Shown: positions 55 to 9,377, numbered from the stretch's first letter. The stretch: 46,647 nt of DNA from an uncultured bacterium (GCA_965369655.1 CBDUQR010000022.1:1-46647), one strand, 5' to 3'. The notes: generated from the sequence alone by a model not told the origin. Translations and numbers: made by a program.

Positions 55-655
55 GCCAGACGCGGACTTGGATATCTTCCTTGTCACGAGACAAGAAATA
101 AACCCGGTCACCGTTGTAGACAGTGCGGTTAAGTACTTTACCGCGCAGGGCTTCAGATGCGACCCGTTCTGGTACGTCGAGAGTTACTTCGATGAGGCGC
201 TTGAAGCAGGCATCGATTGCACGCTTTGGTATCACGTGTTTCAGCTCGGACGGATTATCTATGCCGAGAGCGACCTCCTCGACCGCGTATACGCGGCACT
301 CCGGGGCACTTCTCTTTCCGAAAGCTGTCAACGGACAATAGCTGTGCGTCGAGACCGCGACGCCGAACATCTGCAAGCGCTCATACGAAACACCGATCGC
401 ATACTCACGGAGGCTATTCTCCTTGCATACTCCAAGGCAACGGGATTGTCAACTTGGGACGCACTGCCGGACCGGAGAAGCCTAACGAGCGCCGCCCTAA
501 CTGCTGGAGTCATCGACAAAAACATAAGGCTGGTCGCAGAAAAACTTGCTGCGCTGATACGCCGGGGCGATCTAGGACTAGATGAAGTAGCTTTCGAAGA
601 ACTGTCCCAACTGCGCGCTCGCGTAGCACGCTTTGTAGACGATCAGACAAAATGA
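51..655 (+). pseudogene. 5'-truncated nucleotidyltransferase (Pol-beta/MNT-like) protein with helical C-terminus
   Basis: The frame reads ..RPDADLDIFLV.. (DxD motif as in GSxARGxxxxxSDxD) and ..GRIIYAESDLL.. The preceding GS motif and a real start are missing. ORF track 68..655. Confidence 0.45.
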
Positions 656-710
656 CAGATCCGGAGTGGCGTGGGCCAAGGACTGTACGACCGTGTACAT
701 AGGCTGGGTG

Positions 711-733
711 GCCCGCCCTTCGGGTGGGTTTCT
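711..733 (+). terminator. Possible intrinsic terminator
   Basis: GCCCGCCC-TTC-GGGTGGGT stem (two G-U pairs) followed by a short TTCT tail, downstream of the stop at 655. Confidence 0.35.
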
Positions 734-954
734 AAGAACGCGTCGAATCCCTGGCGCTTTCGACATTCTTCTTTGGACGTGTGTCTATGCGATTTCCCAA
801 ACAACAGACAACACCAGACAGAACCGCCTGCGACCTTCGGGTTATGAGCTCGACGAGCACGATTATTCTTTCCAGTAAATCGTAAGTCTCTGTCTCACAA
901 TATGAATAGCTGAAGCCTCGCGGGGCTAATTCCAGTCAAATCCGAATTTTTTTC

Positions 955-983
955 TTGACACCTGCACAAATGTGCAGTATATT
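955..983 (+). promoter_or_regulatory. Sigma-70 promoter with operator palindrome (LexA-box-like) in the spacer
   Basis: TTGACA (955-960), 17-bp spacer, TATATT (978-983). Spacer 962-977 is the dyad CTGCACA-AA-TGTGCAG with core TGCAC-N4-GTGCA. Confidence 0.8.
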
Positions 984-1115
984 GGGATTGTGATGGAGAA
1001 TGAGTCAGGATGGAGATTTATCGTGGAGTTCAACAATGAAAAGACCACCGGTGGGAGCAAGTCCGGTGGATGTGTTTCAATTCTCGAACAGTCTCACAGG
1101 GAGGTGAGAGACTCT

Positions 1116-1226
1116 TTGACGCTGCTGCAATTGAGAAATCAGCGGTGTCCTGATTGTGGCGGGTCGTTTGTGCAGCAGTCCGGTTGCAGGATATGTCTGT
1201 CGTGCGGCTACAGTCCTTGTGGTTGA
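1116..1226 (+). CDS. 36-aa zinc-ribbon micro-protein resembling the C-terminal tail of class II ribonucleotide reductases
   Basis: TTG start preceded by GGAGGTG. Product MTLLQLRNQRCPDCGGSFVQQSGCRICLSCGYSPCG (CxxCG...GCxxCxxCGYSxCG). The start could lie further upstream (990/993, same frame). Confidence 0.65.
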   Translation: MTLLQLRNQRCPDCGGSFVQQSGCRICLSCGYSPCG

Positions 1227-1255
1227 TGAGTCAAACACTTCCGTGTGAGGTTGCA

Positions 1256-3868
1256 ATGAAAACACTGGTTCTCGAGGAGTACGGACTGCCGAAGGCGCTT
1301 ATCGACAGGTGGAACGAGATGCAGGGCGAGGAACTCCTGCCGCTGCAGGAGAGAGCGATCAAAGAACACGGGCTTCTCGGTGATGAGTCGCTGATTATCA
1401 GTGCGCCGACATCATCAGGGAAAACATTCTGCGGCGAACTGGCCGCCGCTCGCGCACTCTCTGAGCGAAAGAAGACGGTATTCCTGGTTCCGCTGAAGGC
1501 TCTCGCCGAGGAGCGCTACCGCGAGTTCGCGGACAAGTATGATTCGCTCGGCATACGCACCGTTGTCTCGACCAGGGATCACAGAAATTACGATGGCAGC
1601 ATTGAAAAGGGCGAATTCGATCTCGGAGTGATCATCTACGAGAAGTTCAATCAGATGCTGACCCGGAATCTCGACCTGCTCGATTCTGTCGATCTGATTG
1701 TGATCGATGAACTCCAGATGCTTGCTGACAGGAGCCGGGGAGCCGTGCTCGAGATGATTATCCTCAAGGTGCTGCGGAGTTCATATCGCTGTCGTATCGT
1801 CGGGCTTTCGGCGGTGATGAGCAACGCCGATGAACTCGCGGAGTGGATGGATGCGCGCTTGTTCGTCGAATCTCATCGCCCTGTTGAGTTGCGTCAGGGC
1901 GTGCTTCTCGATGACACTTTCTCCTACCGGTGTTTCAATTCGGGCGAAAGGGGCACGGAAGAGATGGCGCCATCGTGCGAGATGCAGGCTGTCGAGAGCC
2001 TGCTGCAGAATGTCTCGAAGCTCGCAACCGAAGGTGAGCAGGTTCTCGTGTTTCTCAAGAGCAAGAATACGTGCGTTCAACTGGCGAGTCTTCTCGCGGA
2101 GAGACTTGCGCTGACATCCTGTGATGGTGCGATCGAGGCGCTCGGCCTGAAGGAAACAACTTCTCTCAGTGAAGAACTGGTCGGCGTTCTATCGAACGGG
2201 ATCGCGTTCCACCATGCTGATCTCTCGTATGATGAGAGGCGCATAGTCGAAGAGCACTATCTCTCCGGTGACATAAGAGTCATTATTGCCACCACCACGC
2301 TTTCGCTTGGGCTGAATCTCCCCGCCCAGACCGTGTTCCTCGAGACACAGAAGTTCCGCCAGGGGCTGTATACGGGCAGGCCTGTGATGGAGCCGCTGAC
2401 CTGGAGCGAGTACGAGAACATGTGCGGCAGAGCCGGCAGACTCAGGTATACATCCGGGTTCGGCAGGGCGATAGTTGTCGCAGGCAGCGAACTCGAATCC
2501 GAGATGCTCTGGAAACGATATACCAACGGCAGCCCGGAAAAGCTCGTCGGTTGCCTGTTCTCGAAATCGATTGAGGATCTTGCGCTCGATCTCGTTGCAT
2601 CCGGTTCTGCGACGACTCAGGAGAGTCTTACGGGAGTGCTTGAATCGGGATTCAGCGACACGCCTGACGACTTGTCGGCACGCATCGAGAGTGCGATCGA
2701 ATGGCTTGCCGATAATGATCTGATCTTCGTATCTGAGAACAAATTGTGCCTGACATACTTCGGCCTGAAACTGGCGCGTCTCGGTATGTCCGCCGTCACC
2801 GCAGCCAGAATGAGAGAGGTGTTTCTCGATGATGCAGGGCATTCCGCTCTGGTATGGATGTATGTACTGGCGGACACGTGTGAAGGTCGTCGGATATACG
2901 TGAGTGCGCGCATGCGGGAGGAGGCGGAATACCATTTGTTCGCGCGGTTCAAGTCCCTGCTCGCTGGTGAAGAAAATCTTCCTGCGCAGCTTTCGGACCT
3001 GATCGAAAATCCGGGACATCTCGACAGGCAGTGTCTGACGCGTGTTCGGATTGTCCTGGCACTGCAGGACTATATCGATGGTCGCAGCATGGAGGAGATT
3101 GAAGCGAACTACAGGATTCATTGCGGCACACTGGAGAGCGTCGGCGAAACTATCGGCTGGCTGGCGGAGTGCGCTTTTTGCCTGATGGGCGCGCTTGGGA
3201 TCAGCAAGCGGAGGAGAGTACTGCTCAAGAGGTTGTCTTTTGAAGTAAGATATGGATTGCCGGTCAGCACGCGGAAACTCTTTACATGTCTGAGAGGGGT
3301 CCTGTCGAGGCATGAGGTTCTGCAATTGTGGGAATGGGGCGTTTGCACCAGGGAAGCGTTCCTGAATGCCGACCGCGAGGAACTCGATAAAGTTATTGGA
3401 GAAAGGAGAGTGAAGATTGCCATGAGACATATCGCCAACAGGACGCAGGAGAAACTCAATGTCACAGGAGGAAACGAGCGATCTGAGCCCGCCTCCAGGC
3501 TGCAATTGACGGGCGCTATGGTCAGAGACAGGTACAAAGTTTTCTTCTCAGGCACACCGCTGCTGCTGACTGCGAAGAGCTTCAAGTACCTCTTCAAACT
3601 GGCTGTGCGCAAGAAGATGGACAGCGAGGGATGGATTGACAAGGAGGAACTCGAACCCGGTTTCAACCAGGCTCGTTATCTCTACAATCTCAAAAAGGAG
3701 ATGGGTGGTTCCTCCCGCGACAGGGCCGAATTGATCGAGAATGACCGCAAGGGCGGTTATCGGTTGAGGTTGAACTCGGATGAAATCGATTTCGACCTGC
3801 GAAGCCTGCTGCATTCGGATGATTTCGAGATTGCGGATCTGTCTCGCGAACTGGCCGTTGCTCAGTAG
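1256..3868 (+). CDS. Ski2-like/Hel308-type SF2 DNA helicase with C-terminal OmpR/PhoB-like winged-helix domain
   Basis: Q motif ELLPLQ, Walker A SAPTSSGKT, motif Ia VPLKALAEE, motif II IDELQ, motif III LSA, GIAFHHA, ATTTLSLGLNLPA, motif VI MCGRAGR. C-terminal ..LLLTAKSFKYLFKL..IENDRKGGYRL. ATG 1256 with GAGG RBS; 870 aa. Confidence 0.9.
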   Translation: MKTLVLEEYGLPKALIDRWNEMQGEELLPLQERAIKEHGLLGDESLIISAPTSSGKTFCGELAAARALSERKKTVFLVPLKALAEERYREFADKYDSLGIRTVVSTRDHRNYDGSIEKGEFDLGVIIYEKFNQMLTRNLDLLDSVDLIVIDELQMLADRSRGAVLEMIILKVLRSSYRCRIVGLSAVMSNADELAEWMDARLFVESHRPVELRQGVLLDDTFSYRCFNSGERGTEEMAPSCEMQAVESLLQNVSKLATEGEQVLVFLKSKNTCVQLASLLAERLALTSCDGAIEALGLKETTSLSEELVGVLSNGIAFHHADLSYDERRIVEEHYLSGDIRVIIATTTLSLGLNLPAQTVFLETQKFRQGLYTGRPVMEPLTWSEYENMCGRAGRLRYTSGFGRAIVVAGSELESEMLWKRYTNGSPEKLVGCLFSKSIEDLALDLVASGSATTQESLTGVLESGFSDTPDDLSARIESAIEWLADNDLIFVSENKLCLTYFGLKLARLGMSAVTAARMREVFLDDAGHSALVWMYVLADTCEGRRIYVSARMREEAEYHLFARFKSLLAGEENLPAQLSDLIENPGHLDRQCLTRVRIVLALQDYIDGRSMEEIEANYRIHCGTLESVGETIGWLAECAFCLMGALGISKRRRVLLKRLSFEVRYGLPVSTRKLFTCLRGVLSRHEVLQLWEWGVCTREAFLNADREELDKVIGERRVKIAMRHIANRTQEKLNVTGGNERSEPASRLQLTGAMVRDRYKVFFSGTPLLLTAKSFKYLFKLAVRKKMDSEGWIDKEELEPGFNQARYLYNLKKEMGGSSRDRAELIENDRKGGYRLRLNSDEIDFDLRSLLHSDDFEIADLSRELAVAQ

Positions 3869-3881
3869 TTTCAGATTGAAA

Positions 3882-4017
3882 CGGGAAGCTGACTATGTCA
3901 CTCTCGCGGAGGCGGGAGCCTATTTAACGATAACGCATTCAATGGATTCCCGCCTTCGCGGGAATGACGTTGCTTCCTTTCGCAAACATGATTACCTGCT
4001 TTTCGCGTCTTTTGGGG
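3882..4017. repeat. Degenerate inverted copy of the MITE at 16027-16225 with ATTCCC-N8-GGGAAT hairpin
   Basis: Reverse complement aligns closely to 16035-16193 (shared GGGAGCCTATTTAAC, ACGCATTCAAT, TTTCGCAAACATGATTACCTGCTTTTCG). Core GATTCCCGCCTTCGCGGGAATGAC at 3945-3968. Confidence 0.85.
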
Positions 4018-4041
4018 CAGACGAGGACGTCTGCCGCCCAC
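4014..4041 (-). repeat. REP-like palindrome (GTGG-GCGGCAGAC family)
   Basis: Reverse complement GTGGGCGGCAGACGTCCTCGTCTGCCCC is 26/28 identical to 40778-40805. Confidence 0.8.
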
Positions 4042-4223
4042 AGAAGGGGTGAGGTGTGAGATCACCAAGTCGCTGGCGCTCCACATGACGACGGACATGC
4101 ATGCGCCCTAAACTTGGTAATTTCACCACTTAGCCTCCGATGTGGTCTATTGCGAGCGCACAATTGGCCGATAATAAAGCAATGTAGAAGGTGACGGTCG
4201 GAGCACATCAACCAAGAGGAGCA

Positions 4224-6710
4224 ATGGCGACAAAGAGATCGGCTGCACTCGAGAACACAGCGTATCCTGTTCTCCCGCTCCTGACTACGGTTGTTTTCCC
4301 AGGAACCGTAGCGACCCTTCATGTCAACAGAAAGCAGAGCATCAATCTGATTCGGCAGAACAGTGATCTCGATAGCGAGATAGTTCTGGTTCTTGCCAGA
4401 GAAGTGAATTCAGACGAGACTCGGTGCAGGGATCTGCACGAGATCGGGGTTATAGCGCAAATCGTCAAGATTCAGGAATCTCACAAGGACAGCTTCATTC
4501 TGACAGTCGCTGCAGAAAACAGGGTTCTCCTGAAGAAATTCGTGACGGAAGAGCCATACCACATAGCCTATGTGGAAGAGGCTGTTGAGGACTTCGGCAA
4601 TCCGAATGAACAGCGCGCCATGACGAAGCGAATTGCCGACCTGACGGAGCGATTGACGAAAACCGATGATGGGTATTCACCAGAACATTGCAGCCTGTTC
4701 GATCTGTCTCGCGATGAGCCGGGATTCTATTGTGATACTGTCGCTAACCAATTGCACATTCCTCTCGAACGGAAACAGCGGGTGCTGGCCGCGCTCAGCA
4801 TCACCGAACGCGCCGGGATTCTCCTCGGCATTGTCACGGAGGAGCTCCATAAGACAAGTATAGAGAGAGAACTGAAATCCAAAGTTGAGCTTTCACTCGA
4901 CCGGCATGAGCGAGAGAAGTATCTGCGGCAACAGCTCACCGAGATTCGTCGCGAGTTGGGGGACGCTGATCCTGAGGAGAAGCTTATCAAGGAATACGAA
5001 AACAGGATTGGGACAATCCCGAATCTGCCCGATCATGTTCGGGAACGGGCTCTGATCGAGACCGGACGCCTGAGTATGCTCTCTTCGGCATCGGCAGAGT
5101 ATGGTTCCACCAGAAACTATCTCGATCTCATTCTGAGCTTGCCGTGGAACAGGCTCGGCGCGGAGGAGAACGACGTTTCGAATATCGAAAAAACGATCTC
5201 AAAGGGATACTATGGTCACGATACGGTCAAGACCGAAGTGCTCGATTTTCTCGCAATTCGTAAGCTGACAGCCGACATTCGCACGCCGGTATTATGTCTG
5301 ACCGGTCCCCTCGGAACCGGGAAGACTTCTCTTGCGGAGCTTATAGCAAAAGCTCTCAACAGGGAATTCGTGAATATCAATGTTGCCGGTATGACATCGG
5401 TGGAGGAAATCAGAGGTAGAAACAGGACGTTTATCGGAGCTGCTCCGGGTAAAATCATTCGAGCTTTCTCCAAGCTAAAGACCTGCAATCCGGTTGTTGT
5501 TATTGATGATCTCGACAAGCTCTCCGAGAACAAGCTCGGGTATGGTCTTCCACTGCTGTTCGTGGAGATAATCGATCCAAGGCAGAACAAATGTTTCTTC
5601 GATGAATATCTCGGTCTCCCGTTCGACCTGTCGGAGGCGATTTTCATCGTGACTGTGGAATCACTCGACTCGATCCCGGACACGCTGGCTGAACGGATGG
5701 AGGTGATCGAGTCAGCGGGATATATTGAGGCGGAGAAGACCGCGATCGCTCGGAATTTCATCTTGCCGAAACTCATAAAACGGCACAAACTGTCGGCTTC
5801 CGACCTGAAAATCTCCCTTAATGCGATCAAAAAGATCGTACGTAATTATACTCTCGAATCAGGCATTCAGGGGCTTAAACGAGAGTTTGAAGTCCTCTGC
5901 CGAAAGTGTGTCAGGCAGAAAGCGTCATCGGGCAGAGTCTCATGGAAGATTACCGAGCGAAACCTGGAACGTTACCTCGGAGCCCCGATATTCATACCCG
6001 AAGTTGCCGAGGTTCAGCCTGAAGTCGGCGTCGCGACCGGGTTGGCCTGGACCGGATCAGGTGGAGACCTGATGCTTGTCGAGGGACTCAGGATGCCCGG
6101 CGCGGGAAATGTCTTCACGACAGGATCACTTGGCGATGTGATGCGCGAATCTATTCAGGCGGCGCATTCGTATATTCGCTCAAAGGCGGATCTTCTCGGA
6201 ATCGATCACTCCGATTTTGCCAACTACGATGTGCACATACATTTCCCATCGGGCAGCATACCGAAAGACGGCCCGTCGGCAGGCTTGGCTGTCTCAATCG
6301 TCATAGCGTCTGTGATGTCCGACTGCCCAATCAGAAATGACATAGCTATGACCGGTGAGGTGTCTCTGCGTGGCAAGGTGCTGCCCGTATCCGGAATCAG
6401 GGAGAAGATCGCCGCGGCTCACAGGGCGGGCATATATGGAATCGTCCTGCCTTCAGGAAACGAGAAAGATATCAAGACGCTTCCAAGCCAGCTCTGCGAT
6501 GAGATCGAGTTCATTCTCGTCGATACTGTCGAAGATGTTTTCGAACATACGCTTCTCGACTTCGATCCCAAAATCCTGTCATTGCAGCAACTGGTTCAGA
6601 ACGAGATCGTCAAGGTGACGAAGAACCTCCAGAAGCAGACGCAGTTGGGCAGGGGGCGCGCCGTCGTGAAGAAGAAGCGTACCACAGCAAAGCGCACCAG
6701 AAAACGGTAG
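4224..6710 (+). CDS. lon: ATP-dependent Lon protease (divergent copy)
   Basis: LON N-domain (PVLPL..VVFPG), Walker A GPLGTGKTS, Walker B variant VVIDDLDK, protease motif PKDGPSAG with catalytic Lys in EKIAAA, GLAWT motif. ATG 4224 with GAGGAG RBS. Confidence 0.92.
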   Translation: MATKRSAALENTAYPVLPLLTTVVFPGTVATLHVNRKQSINLIRQNSDLDSEIVLVLAREVNSDETRCRDLHEIGVIAQIVKIQESHKDSFILTVAAENRVLLKKFVTEEPYHIAYVEEAVEDFGNPNEQRAMTKRIADLTERLTKTDDGYSPEHCSLFDLSRDEPGFYCDTVANQLHIPLERKQRVLAALSITERAGILLGIVTEELHKTSIERELKSKVELSLDRHEREKYLRQQLTEIRRELGDADPEEKLIKEYENRIGTIPNLPDHVRERALIETGRLSMLSSASAEYGSTRNYLDLILSLPWNRLGAEENDVSNIEKTISKGYYGHDTVKTEVLDFLAIRKLTADIRTPVLCLTGPLGTGKTSLAELIAKALNREFVNINVAGMTSVEEIRGRNRTFIGAAPGKIIRAFSKLKTCNPVVVIDDLDKLSENKLGYGLPLLFVEIIDPRQNKCFFDEYLGLPFDLSEAIFIVTVESLDSIPDTLAERMEVIESAGYIEAEKTAIARNFILPKLIKRHKLSASDLKISLNAIKKIVRNYTLESGIQGLKREFEVLCRKCVRQKASSGRVSWKITERNLERYLGAPIFIPEVAEVQPEVGVATGLAWTGSGGDLMLVEGLRMPGAGNVFTTGSLGDVMRESIQAAHSYIRSKADLLGIDHSDFANYDVHIHFPSGSIPKDGPSAGLAVSIVIASVMSDCPIRNDIAMTGEVSLRGKVLPVSGIREKIAAAHRAGIYGIVLPSGNEKDIKTLPSQLCDEIEFILVDTVEDVFEHTLLDFDPKILSLQQLVQNEIVKVTKNLQKQTQLGRGRAVVKKKRTTAKRTRKR

Positions 6711-6962
6711 TTCGTCACCAGTTCAAGTCTCATTTGTCCCGAATCGATAGTAGTATCCTACGAGCTTTTCCACCATTCCAGCCAAATTCCAACCAAATAG
6801 TGTCTTGACAAGAAGCGGGCAACAGGCTTAATTGCTTTTGAGGCTTACCCTACAAACCATAGAGGATGTCTCGCCAGTTTGAAGCACATGTGGGAGCCTT
6901 GCGCTCTTGCCGGGCAGTGCTAAATTGATTTTGAATGAAAACCTTTAGCAGTTGGAGGAAAG

Positions 6963-9377
6963 ATGCATAGGAAGCATTTTACCTTGGGTGTATGTCTGGC
7001 TGTGGTGCTGCTTCTCACAGGATCGGCGTTCGCGCAGGATACTGGCGTTCTGGACACCGTCCGCTACGTACCGGAGAGTTCGACGTGGACGATCAATTCC
7101 GCAGGAGATTCGCTCTTCTCTTTCGAGTTCTTCGGCTGGACGGACCAGAGTATTACAGCTTTTTCGCTTGGTTTCAAAATCCCAACGAGCACCGGTGGCG
7201 GCACTGGCCATGATGACTCGCTGATAGTGGTTGACACATTTAATTACACTATGTCGACGGCCTTTCCGGTAGATTGGGCATTTAGCGCGGTGGATTCAGC
7301 GAGTTACCCAGGGGCGCGGCACAGCGAGTACAATGGCTGCCTGCTCGGACGGATCTCTCCGTTCTTCCCTCCGAATACGTCATCGAAGATTGGCGATTTC
7401 TTTATCAAGATTCCTGATCCCACCTTGCTGCCGTGTGAGTTTGACATAACTGTCGACTCGGTCTTTTTCCCGCCTGCTGGGGTTTTCAAGTTCTCTCCCT
7501 CTCCCGGCTCCGGCTTCGCGCCGCAATATGTAGGCGCGACAATTCACGTGGTCAACAACATCTGTACTCCTGAACCTACGATTGGCCTCGATCCGACAAG
7601 CTTCACTTTTGAAGCCGTGGCCGGAGAGGCAGATCCGGACGTGCAGGTGCTAAGCGTGCAAAATGTCGGAGAGGGGACGCTCAACTGGACTGCCGCGAAT
7701 ACTCAGCCGTGGCTAACACTTAGCCCCAACTCCGGTGTTGATGACGAACCGTGTTCTTTGTATGTGAGTGTCGCCGGGCTTGCTGCAGGCTTGTACGAGG
7801 ATACGATCACCGTTTCCGATCCTGCCGCCACGAATTCGCCGCAACTTGCAGTGGTCAATTTCGAGGTGATTATTCCGCCACCGATCATAGAACTCGTCCC
7901 GGACGATTTCCAGTTCCTGGCGCAGCAGGACTCGGCAAATCCGGCTCCGCAAAGCATGCAGATAAGCGATATTGGCGCCGGAACACTGGAGTGGACAGCA
8001 TCGAATTCCGAGTCGTGGCTTACGCTTTCGGCGTATGGCGGTGGACCCGGCGATGTGATAGATCTGAATGTGGACATCACTGGCATGTCGTTCGGAGTCT
8101 ACTACGATCAGATCATCGTCTCGGATCCGAATGCGTCGAATTCTCCGCAAATCGCCACAGTCGAACTGACGATTGTATCCGTTTTCCCGATCATTGAACT
8201 CGATCCAGACAGTTTCTTCGTTGTCGCGTCGGCCACTCAGGAACCGTACAATCGCCAGATGTCAATAACCAATGTGGGCGGAGACTGGCTGAGGTACACG
8301 ATAACATCCGCGCAGGGCACGATGTCGTTCATTCCTGATGTGGATTCCGTGATTTCGGGCGAGACAGCTACGATTGAGATTATTTTCAATACTGCTTCTC
8401 TCGGGTTTGGGCTGAACTACGACAACATTGAGGTGTCATCACCGACAGCCCCGAATTCGCCGCAGATCATCCCGGTTACCATTTGGAAAATGGAGTCACC
8501 TCCTATCCTCGTGGTGAATCCCGATCAGATGACGTTTGACGTATACGAATGTTACAATCATCCAAATCCACCTACCAAACTGATCTCGGTACAAAACGCA
8601 GGGGCGGAATTCCTGAACTGGACCGCATACTGGGATGCCTCGTGGCTGATTCTGACGCCGAGTTCCGCTGAGAATAGCGGGACCATTTTCACGACCGTCG
8701 ATGTGACAGGCCTCGCGACCGGCACGTATGTCGATACTGTAGTGATTGTCGCCGAACTCTCCATCAATCCACCGGAATCAGTAGAAGTCATCCTGAACGT
8801 AGCCGAGCAGACTGATCCGCCGATCATCCTGGTGACGCAGACTCACTACGAATTCATCTTCAAGCATTCACAGGTCGGCACGAGTGAGCAACCACTGACG
8901 ATCCTGAACACCGCCAGCGGTTGTATGGACTGGTATCTAACTGAGAGCACGACCTGGCTCGACATTGAGCCCGATGCTGGTGAAGTCCCGGATTTGGCGT
9001 GGGTCGGTGTTAATGGTTTCGGCTTGCCGCTCGGCAAGACATCGACAAGCTTCTTCGTCAATTCCGATGAGGCCACCAACAGCCCGATCGAGGTCACGGT
9101 CGATCTCTATATCTGGACCTTCGGCGATGCTAATTGCGACGGAATTGTCGACATTGATGACGTTGTCTATGATCTGAAATACATTTTCCAAGGGGGGCCG
9201 GAACCGTGTCCCGGTGTCTGGGTGGGCGATGTAGACTGCTCGCATACTGTCGACATCGATGATGTCACGTACCTTCTGGCCTATATTTTCCAGGGTGGCC
9301 CACCGCCCTGTGATTGGGATCCTGAGCCGCCTCTCACATCTGCTGTTCACACGTTCCAGGACGAGGTTGTGAAATAA
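6963..9377 (+). CDS. Secreted protein: N-terminal beta-rich (possibly cohesin-like) domain, five ~100-aa BACON/Ig-like repeats, C-terminal dockerin
   Basis: Signal peptide ending AFA. Repeats with NxGxxxLxWT..WLxLxP..NSPQ. Twin Ca-binding loops GDANCDGIVDIDD and GDVDCSHTVDIDD. GGAGG RBS. Confidence 0.85.
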   Translation: MHRKHFTLGVCLAVVLLLTGSAFAQDTGVLDTVRYVPESSTWTINSAGDSLFSFEFFGWTDQSITAFSLGFKIPTSTGGGTGHDDSLIVVDTFNYTMSTAFPVDWAFSAVDSASYPGARHSEYNGCLLGRISPFFPPNTSSKIGDFFIKIPDPTLLPCEFDITVDSVFFPPAGVFKFSPSPGSGFAPQYVGATIHVVNNICTPEPTIGLDPTSFTFEAVAGEADPDVQVLSVQNVGEGTLNWTAANTQPWLTLSPNSGVDDEPCSLYVSVAGLAAGLYEDTITVSDPAATNSPQLAVVNFEVIIPPPIIELVPDDFQFLAQQDSANPAPQSMQISDIGAGTLEWTASNSESWLTLSAYGGGPGDVIDLNVDITGMSFGVYYDQIIVSDPNASNSPQIATVELTIVSVFPIIELDPDSFFVVASATQEPYNRQMSITNVGGDWLRYTITSAQGTMSFIPDVDSVISGETATIEIIFNTASLGFGLNYDNIEVSSPTAPNSPQIIPVTIWKMESPPILVVNPDQMTFDVYECYNHPNPPTKLISVQNAGAEFLNWTAYWDASWLILTPSSAENSGTIFTTVDVTGLATGTYVDTVVIVAELSINPPESVEVILNVAEQTDPPIILVTQTHYEFIFKHSQVGTSEQPLTILNTASGCMDWYLTESTTWLDIEPDAGEVPDLAWVGVNGFGLPLGKTSTSFFVNSDEATNSPIEVTVDLYIWTFGDANCDGIVDIDDVVYDLKYIFQGGPEPCPGVWVGDVDCSHTVDIDDVTYLLAYIFQGGPPPCDWDPEPPLTSAVHTFQDEVVK

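Follow-up and report, generated by a model that had tools for sequence, protein, structure and literature searches.

A palindrome-bearing promoter ahead of a helicase gene in Zixibacteria

Which regulator controls a helicase gene that lies behind a promoter with a palindrome in its spacer, and what is the role of its product? This question is raised by positions 955 to 3868 of a 46,647-nucleotide (nt) stretch of DNA from an uncultured bacterium (GCA_965369655.1, CBDUQR010000022.1:1-46647), which was analyzed as a whole and is called the window here. The host is a Zixibacteria bacterium, whose genome (G000; 2.99 Mb) is 99.5% complete. A previous sequence-only reading had described at this place a near-consensus promoter with a 16-bp dyad as its spacer, a cysteine-rich open reading frame (ORF) of 36 amino acids (aa) and, 29 nt later, an 870-aa Hel308-like helicase with an extra C-terminal winged helix, and had proposed the dyad as a LexA-type operator. 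We assign a probability of about three in four to the reading that this is a LexA-repressed (SOS) operon of Zixibacteria, which encodes a six-Cys microprotein and a Hel308-family helicase with a winged helix and would be induced by DNA damage. A Hel308-type helicase and an SOS regulon are both of known kinds. Their bacterial setting was not found described in the literature searched, and the two appendages, the winged helix and a microprotein probably copied from a reductase tail, are unstudied and open to study. The features of the locus are as follows.

955-983, plus strand: sigma-70-type promoter; -35 element TTGACA at 955-960, 17-nt spacer, -10 element TATATT at 978-983; score 11/12
962-977, no strand assigned: putative LexA operator (SOS box), CTGCAC-AAAT-GTGCAG, within the promoter spacer
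1100-1107, plus strand: Shine-Dalgarno-like GGAGGTGA before TTG 1116, read from the sequence
1116-1226 (TTG to TGA), plus strand: short ORF (sORF) for a predicted six-Cys zinc-ribbon microprotein of 36 aa; spacing CxxC-x9-CxxCxxC-x4-C
1256-3868, plus strand: Hel308-type superfamily 2 (SF2) helicase of 870 aa; ATG start, 29 nt past the sORF stop
1340-2443, plus strand: two RecA-like motor domains (Pfam: DEAD, aa 29-193; Helicase_C, aa 253-396)
2858-3256, plus strand: Hel308 domain 4 (ratchet; Pfam Helicase_dom4_arc, PF21280), aa 535-667; 32.5 bits, cut-off 27
3500-3865, plus strand: predicted OmpR/PhoB-type winged helix-turn-helix (wHTH), about aa 749-870; AlphaFold2 model and fold search

The promoter, the dyad and the helicase gene were thus recovered as described. 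The two 6-nt arms of the dyad are fully complementary, and its 4-nt centre is non-palindromic. The promoter is the sole sigma-70-like match within positions 600-4300; shuffled sequences averaged 2.1 matches, so that the match alone proves little. The exact dyad occurs once in the window and once in the 2.99-Mb genome, which is the same site. In the 130-nt leader no known riboswitch was recognized, as Rfam at gathering thresholds matched nothing in the window.

For comparison, we used 41 related genomes, 35 of which are of high quality (loci are labelled L and genomes G), and 80 public loci collected via the helicase alignment, of which 73 were usable for upstream inspection. The promoter and dyad were nearly letter-identical in ten loci (L001-L009 and L018). 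Because the helicases of those genomes are only 41-59% identical to that of the host, this agreement exceeds what is expected by chance. A box with at most two mismatches stands directly behind TTGAC in 23 of the 27 relatives' loci with upstream sequence, and 69 of the 73 public loci have the box, exact in 53 of them; the layout TTGAC(A)-N2-box-TAT is common to these 23 and 69 loci. The four public loci without the box are labelled Syntrophaceae, Deltaproteobacteria or unclassified. By these counts, the layout is kept across most of the Zixibacteria group. The variant CTGAAC-N4-GTTCAG replaces the CTGCAC box in L017 and L020, and the operator seems to drift from lineage to lineage within the class.

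Occurrence of the box at lexA and other SOS genes

The exact 14-bp core of the dyad is also present elsewhere in the relatives' genomes, and 20 such places were inspected. Seven of them, in seven genomes, lie in the promoter of an ORF that is 59-66% identical to the host's LexA. Five precede genes for small RecA-fold, ImuA-like proteins (L035, L036, L040, L047 and L054), and two precede IMS-family Y polymerases (L041 and L045), one of these behind a 109-aa ORF. In G002, an ImuA-like gene with its own box is divergent from the helicase operon, and the same holds by position for G003 and G004. We also inspected the upstream regions of 20 further lexA genes. Nine had a box with at most two mismatches, six had a promoter-embedded variant with three mismatches, and that of G028 had a three-mismatch site where TTGAC is not clear. 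In the host genome, the lexA gene was found in the following arrangement.

G000 contig C19, about 4491-6839, minus strand: operon of lexA, a conserved 109-aa ORF (unknown family) and a dinB-like Y polymerase gene, with two degenerate tandem boxes ahead

The tandem-box pattern at lexA also occurs in G001, G003 and G004. The pair of the 109-aa ORF and dinB recurs in G012 (L041). The host LexA matched PF01726 with 79.8 bits, and its Ala-Gly site and the Ser and Lys motifs were recognized by eye. RecA is also present in the host (466 bits). The locus and its genomes therefore display the features of a LexA regulon, namely a palindrome overlapping the promoter, the motif at lexA and at other SOS genes, and the presence of LexA and RecA. 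No LexA was found in two genomes of family f11, G020 (99% complete) and G029 (97% complete). These two account for two of the four relatives' loci without the box; both retain the helicase, and the sORF is missing as well. The SOS switch may have been lost in family f11. These comparisons make it very probable that this Zixibacteria lineage uses the dyad as its LexA box, as the sequence-only reading had proposed, and LexA would bind there.

A 16-bp palindromic operator that overlaps the promoter, and that stands at lexA and translesion-synthesis genes, is shared with known LexA/SOS regulons. The CTG-N10-CAG geometry is like that of the E. coli box, and the CTGAAC-N4-GTTCAG variants resemble the Gram-positive GAAC-N4-GTTC box. 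The half-site here, CTGCAC, differs from those of the E. coli and Gram-positive boxes; a similar Fibrobacter box is reported to have been described by Mazon and colleagues in 2004. Among minor observations, box variants were seen in L017, L020 and L168 (G037 and G017), with TTGAAC at the lexA of G037, and the lexA promoters of family f9 bear ATGAAC-N4-GAGCAG. No paper on a Zixibacteria SOS box or on the Fibrobacter motif was found in the literature searched, and the comparison would thus define the SOS box of an uncultured phylum. The regulon also differs from described ones in that its top target is a Hel308-type helicase, which was found in no SOS description searched, and in that it looks tiny. 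The SOS-related listing contained in PMC8565304, its supplement aside, names RecQ, RecG and UvrD, not Hel308.

The helicase resembles Hel308 over its full length

The family of the helicase was assigned by ranking its scores against profiles and solved structures. The NCBIfam profile NF002654 matched aa 7-733 with 356 bits, and NF040935 matched with 291 bits over its positions 2-703 of 704. The top solved relatives were Hjm/Hel308 enzymes at 227-205 bits, headed by 2zj2 (227 bits, aa 23-715) and followed by 9b15, 2p6r and 2va8. The lower ranks were taken by ASCC3 and Brr2, by the PolQ helicase and by Ski2 and Mtr4, in this order, and HamB was the last of the 52 relatives listed, at 63.5 bits. 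The full domain series was matched, including the ratchet domain 4 and the C-terminal domain 5 (NF040935, PF21280 and 2zj2). The Walker A motif TSSGKT, DELQ and GRAGR do not vary among 67 sequences, and motif IVa, FHHADL, aligned to FHHAGL of Hjm (2zj2). F/YHHAGL as motif IVa marks Hel308/HELQ, according to the motif description in PMC10484726. The Hel308-like character proposed earlier is therefore borne out by full-length profile and structure matches, far above HamB.

The protein has in common with archaeal Hel308/Hjm and metazoan HELQ the RecA domains, the winged-helix region, the ratchet domain 4, a domain 5 of the helix-hairpin-helix type and motif IVa (FHHADL, against FHHAGL in Hjm), and presumably also a role at damaged forks. 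It differs from archaeal Hel308 in being bacterial, in scores far below the NCBI equivalog level and in the roughly 120 aa of the added C-terminal winged helix of OmpR/PhoB type, which archaeal Hel308 lacks; a putative LexA-box promoter and a predicted co-transcribed zinc microprotein are further differences.

The helicase is a core gene, found in 38 of the 41 relatives and in all 35 high-quality genomes. Named homologs are proteins from Zixibacteria metagenome-assembled genomes, 860-930 aa in length and with 100% coverage. Many public contigs that bear the Zixibacteria-type operon and box are titled 'uncultured Ignavibacteria' (L082, L085-L089 and others), and these titles look like coarse pipeline labels. 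Because RecQ did not exceed its cut-off in the host genome (best score 61.9 against 219.8 bits), the helicase may fill the role of RecQ. RecG is present in the host, and so is a Mfd-like frame of 1155 aa.

Hel308 is said to be absent from bacteria in the Discussion of PMC12278908, where Hel308/HELQ figures as an archaeal and metazoan repair helicase; its cellular role is still debated. A 2026 review (PMC13623763) places Ski2-like helicases in all domains and says nothing more specific. In the literature searched, which largely leaves out older SOS work and supplements (e.g., that of PMC8565304), we found neither a bacterial Hel308 nor a Hel308 under LexA described. A Hel308 family search matched 12 of 14 control genomes through generic helicase similarity, and an absence from bacteria is not shown by that search. 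In the present case, a bacterial class has a full-length Hel308-type enzyme among its core genes, and the gene stands behind the single best putative LexA box of the host genome. The predicted LexA wiring would provide a regulatory argument that this type of helicase serves the DNA damage response.

A winged helix of the OmpR/PhoB type at the C-terminus

The extra C-terminal winged helix was recovered by both modelling and fold search. The AlphaFold2 model of aa 720-870, built with 27 homologs, had a mean predicted local distance difference test (pLDDT) value of 83.7, and model residues 30-150 were confident. The top PDB matches listed by the fold search were all of the OmpR/PhoB family (ArlR, VanR, BaeR, GlnR, PhoB, PhoP, AfsR and EmbR), with target-normalised template modelling (TM) scores up to 0.64. 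The modelled domain consists of an N-terminal beta sheet, three helices and a beta-hairpin wing. It has the fold of OmpR/PhoB effectors such as ArlR, PhoB, GlnR, AfsR and EmbR, but it is fused to a helicase instead of a receiver domain, lacks a Pfam sequence match and has an additional C-terminal helix pair.

Look-alike helicase clusters labelled Hydrogenedentota and Atribacterota have Trans_reg_C in 72-97% of their members, and another such cluster is labelled Myxococcota. These clusters indicate that the helicase-wHTH fusion is wider than Zixibacteria. The four loci with this fusion that were inspected from other phyla had neither the box nor the sORF. The conservation of dyad and sORF, which the sequence-only reading had named as its check, thus holds among the relatives and the public loci (box in 23/27 and 69/73, sORF in 25/38) but does not extend to these four. 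The wHTH profile matched 708 cluster representatives at E-values up to 1e-3. Among the best 150 of these 708, 25 have at least 800 aa, 26 have 261-799 aa and 99 have no more than 260 aa, and by these lengths stand-alone versions of the domain are common.

One stand-alone case lies in G015, which is 95% complete and in which no helicase core was found. At L055 (G015:C73, 1676-2595, minus strand), a LexA box with one mismatch precedes a 76-aa zinc-ribbon ORF, which is followed by the gene for a 223-aa stand-alone wHTH protein. This single case hints that the sORF goes with the winged helix. A sORF-like match in G024 was rejected, since it is an NrdJ tail at a contig end, and G015 is the one genome known here to pair a sORF with a stand-alone wHTH. 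At L056 (G009:C4, 1546-2010, minus strand), a stand-alone wHTH protein of 154 aa lies between a large ATPase-like ORF and a phage-like ORF of 294 aa, as judged by eye. No LexA box is nearby, and the wHTH domain thus also travels outside the helicase.

The microprotein resembles the tail of a ribonucleotide reductase

The Cys-rich ORF exists as described, with six Cys in 1116-1226; its length of 36 aa is less certain. With the frame open from position 930, translation could also start at an in-frame ATG at 993, about 10 nt past the -10 hexamer, for a product of 77 aa. Homologs in L002, L003, L005 and L008 are 55-70 aa long from ATG, as judged by eye. The six Cys are invariant in 18 sORF homologs. 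The ratio of nonsynonymous to synonymous differences (pN/pS) was below 1 in 36 of 36 pairs and was 0.09-0.35 in six close, unsaturated pairs (L005, L006, L007 and L009), which indicates that the sORF is a protein under selection and not a mere leader. In a profile search of the 41 genomes, the sORF adjoined the helicase in 25 of the 38 helicase-bearing genomes, and one ambiguous case lies at a contig end. A second N-terminal knuckle, CxC...CxxC, is added in some sORF lineages. The model of the 36-aa form had a pLDDT of 76.7, and the fold search gave weak zinc-ribbon matches with E-values of 0.38 or higher. In L011 (909-1485) and related loci of family f5, the sORF and the helicase are 300-760 nt apart with short internal repeats, and no convincing ORF was found in the 575-nt gap of L011.

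In nearly every genome the sORF profile had a second match, which is the C-terminal end of a frame of 730-990 aa. In the host, this frame is the class II ribonucleotide reductase NrdJ, whose last 25 residues share the Cys spacing and many identities with the sORF. In the NrdJ profile NF006417, moreover, the final 43 positions were matched by the sORF (E = 2.8e-8). Judged by this resemblance, the sORF duplicates the six-Cys zinc tail of the host's NrdJ as a free-standing protein. The likeness to NrdJ had gone unmentioned in the sequence-only reading, as had the Lon paralog downstream of the helicase. The sORF shares with the NrdJ tail six C-terminal Cys of identical spacing. It is separate from the reductase chain, 36-77 aa long, located beside the helicase and putatively under LexA control. 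It also evolves faster: NrdJ tails are nearly invariant across the genomes, and the sORFs diverge much faster. The six-Cys array of NrdJ binds zinc and passes electrons, also between subunits, and its native reductant is unknown, according to the account of the array in PMC5704485.

Proposed mechanism and alternative explanations

As long as the cell is undamaged, the 16-bp palindrome between the -35 and -10 elements would be occupied by a LexA dimer that blocks RNA polymerase. Once the DNA is damaged, LexA would cleave itself under stimulation by RecA and so release the promoter, and the six-Cys microprotein, presumably binding zinc, and the Hel308-family helicase, a predicted 3'-to-5' DNA helicase, would then be made. 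By analogy with archaeal Hel308/Hjm, the helicase would most likely act where replication forks have stalled or broken, or on intermediates of recombination. The winged helix may add a contact to duplex DNA or to a partner and, perhaps together with the microprotein, may direct the helicase to damaged forks or intermediates. The microprotein would most likely be an accessory of the C-terminal winged-helix module. A complex prediction for the full-length helicase with the sORF product scored 0.00, which bears on binding neither way.

Several observations weigh against this LexA-controlled repair operon, or against parts of it. The compared genomes are mutually related, so the counts given above overstate independent support. 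The host's own lexA has degenerate boxes only, no box was found upstream of the host recA, and 4 of the 20 further lexA upstream regions had no recognizable box. When mismatches to the short IUPAC motif were counted genome-wide, the sites with one or two mismatches in the host genome were at background (88, against 70 for the reversed-pattern control), and the regulon there appears to be very small, consisting of just the lexA operon and the sORF-helicase operon. The profile scores of the helicase were below the equivalog cut-offs (356 against 887 for NF002654, and 291 against 1200 for NF040935), and for this reason it is called Hel308-type and not an equivalog. The fold E-values of the winged helix were modest, from 7e-3 to 0.14 with none at or below 1e-3, and Pfam Trans_reg_C (PF00486) matched none of the 27 members at E-values up to 1 and nowhere in the whole protein. 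Finally, the sORF was not found beside the helicase in 11 of the 38 genomes, so the helicase does not strictly need it.

The dyad could be read by another regulator, for example by the helicase's own winged helix, which would then autoregulate a damage regulon without LexA as the binder. The helicase does bear a DNA-binding type of fold, and its gene and the box co-occur nearly everywhere, so that co-occurrence cannot separate the two candidates. A box in the promoter of lexA itself is a hallmark of LexA autoregulation, however, and in many genomes it is found there; the targets, lexA and imuA-like and dinB-like genes, are the classic SOS core. OmpR/PhoB domains usually read direct repeats, and LexA dimers read palindromes of the dyad's geometry. 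In addition, G020 and G029 keep the helicase (its C-terminus was seen in L027), and the disappearance of the box where LexA was not found favours LexA over the winged helix as the binder. We therefore consider a different regulator very unlikely. A role in RNA surveillance, as a Ski2 or ASH-Ski2 RNA helicase behind a dyad unrelated to DNA damage, is suggested by the many RNA enzymes among Ski2-like helicases and by Brr2, ASCC3, Ski2 and Mtr4 among the solved relatives. But the best and only full-length matches are the DNA helicases Hel308/Hjm, the Hel308/HELQ motif IVa (defined as in the motif description of PMC10484726) is present, and the helicase gene has its operator in common with lexA and translesion polymerase genes; this role appears highly improbable.

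Least credible is an anti-phage defence module of the Hachiman type or of a related type with a Ski2-like helicase. The PADLOC profiles HamB and PDC-M23B match the motor domains with up to 125.6 bits, and a Ski2-like motor responding to DNA damage, as predicted here, is also a property of Hachiman HamB. These matches are confined to the helicase core, however, and the solved HamB scored 63.5 bits against 227 for Hjm. HamA (PF08878, DUF1837) was not detected in the genome, which agrees with the absence of a HamA-like partner stated in the sequence-only reading, although this is weak, since the search control matched no genome and was uninformative. The flanking ORFs have no PADLOC match save generic Lon and AAA, and all 35 high-quality relatives have it as a core chromosomal gene with conserved neighbours, unlike patchy defence islands. 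Instead of serving the helicase, the microprotein may act in trans on ribonucleotide reductase in the SOS response, as a copy of the NrdJ six-Cys tail, and have no more than a transcript in common with the helicase. Its strong similarity to the host's NrdJ tail with the same Cys spacing, the transfer of electrons between subunits by the zinc-binding six-Cys array whose reductant is unknown (as that array is described in PMC5704485), and the 11 of 38 genomes where the helicase has no adjoining sORF are in favour of such a function. However, sequence change is much faster in the sORFs than in the NrdJ tails and does not point to a docking site common to both, and across the 41 genomes the sORF always lies beside the helicase, or beside the stand-alone wHTH in G015, and never beside nrdJ. 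We regard this function as quite unlikely. A combined form of the LexA-controlled operon, in which SOS induction would co-induce a free NrdJ-tail copy and Hel308, with the microprotein either acting in trans on NrdJ, and so tuning the deoxyribonucleoside triphosphate supply during repair, or gating the winged helix as a zinc or redox switch, is unlikely too, if somewhat less so. If true, a single LexA-controlled transcript would tie nucleotide supply or redox state to fork rescue.

Neighbouring genes

A same-strand gene for a Lon-type protease lies directly downstream of the helicase gene.

4191-6710, plus strand: LonA-type protease paralog (Pfam), directly 3' of the helicase gene

The host genome has three Lon paralogs, including this one. 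In 52 of 88 loci, the helicase gene is immediately followed by a lon gene of the same orientation; the 88 loci comprise two overlapping sets from related genomes and are not independent. Both the sORF and lon were present in 50 of these loci, neither in 29, the sORF only in 7 and lon only in 2, and the lon arrangement thus goes along with the sORF. In the 322-nt gap between the helicase and lon genes (3869-4190), no promoter-like site was found, and the gap contains two GC-rich hairpins without T-runs. The lon gene may be co-transcribed from the putative SOS promoter. Upstream of the operon lies a 195-aa ORF with no family match and no relatives in the compared loci. Further downstream, positions 6963-9377 of the window encode a secreted-looking protein of 804 aa with BACON-type immunoglobulin repeats and a C-terminal pair of dockerin-like Asp-rich repeats, as judged by eye.

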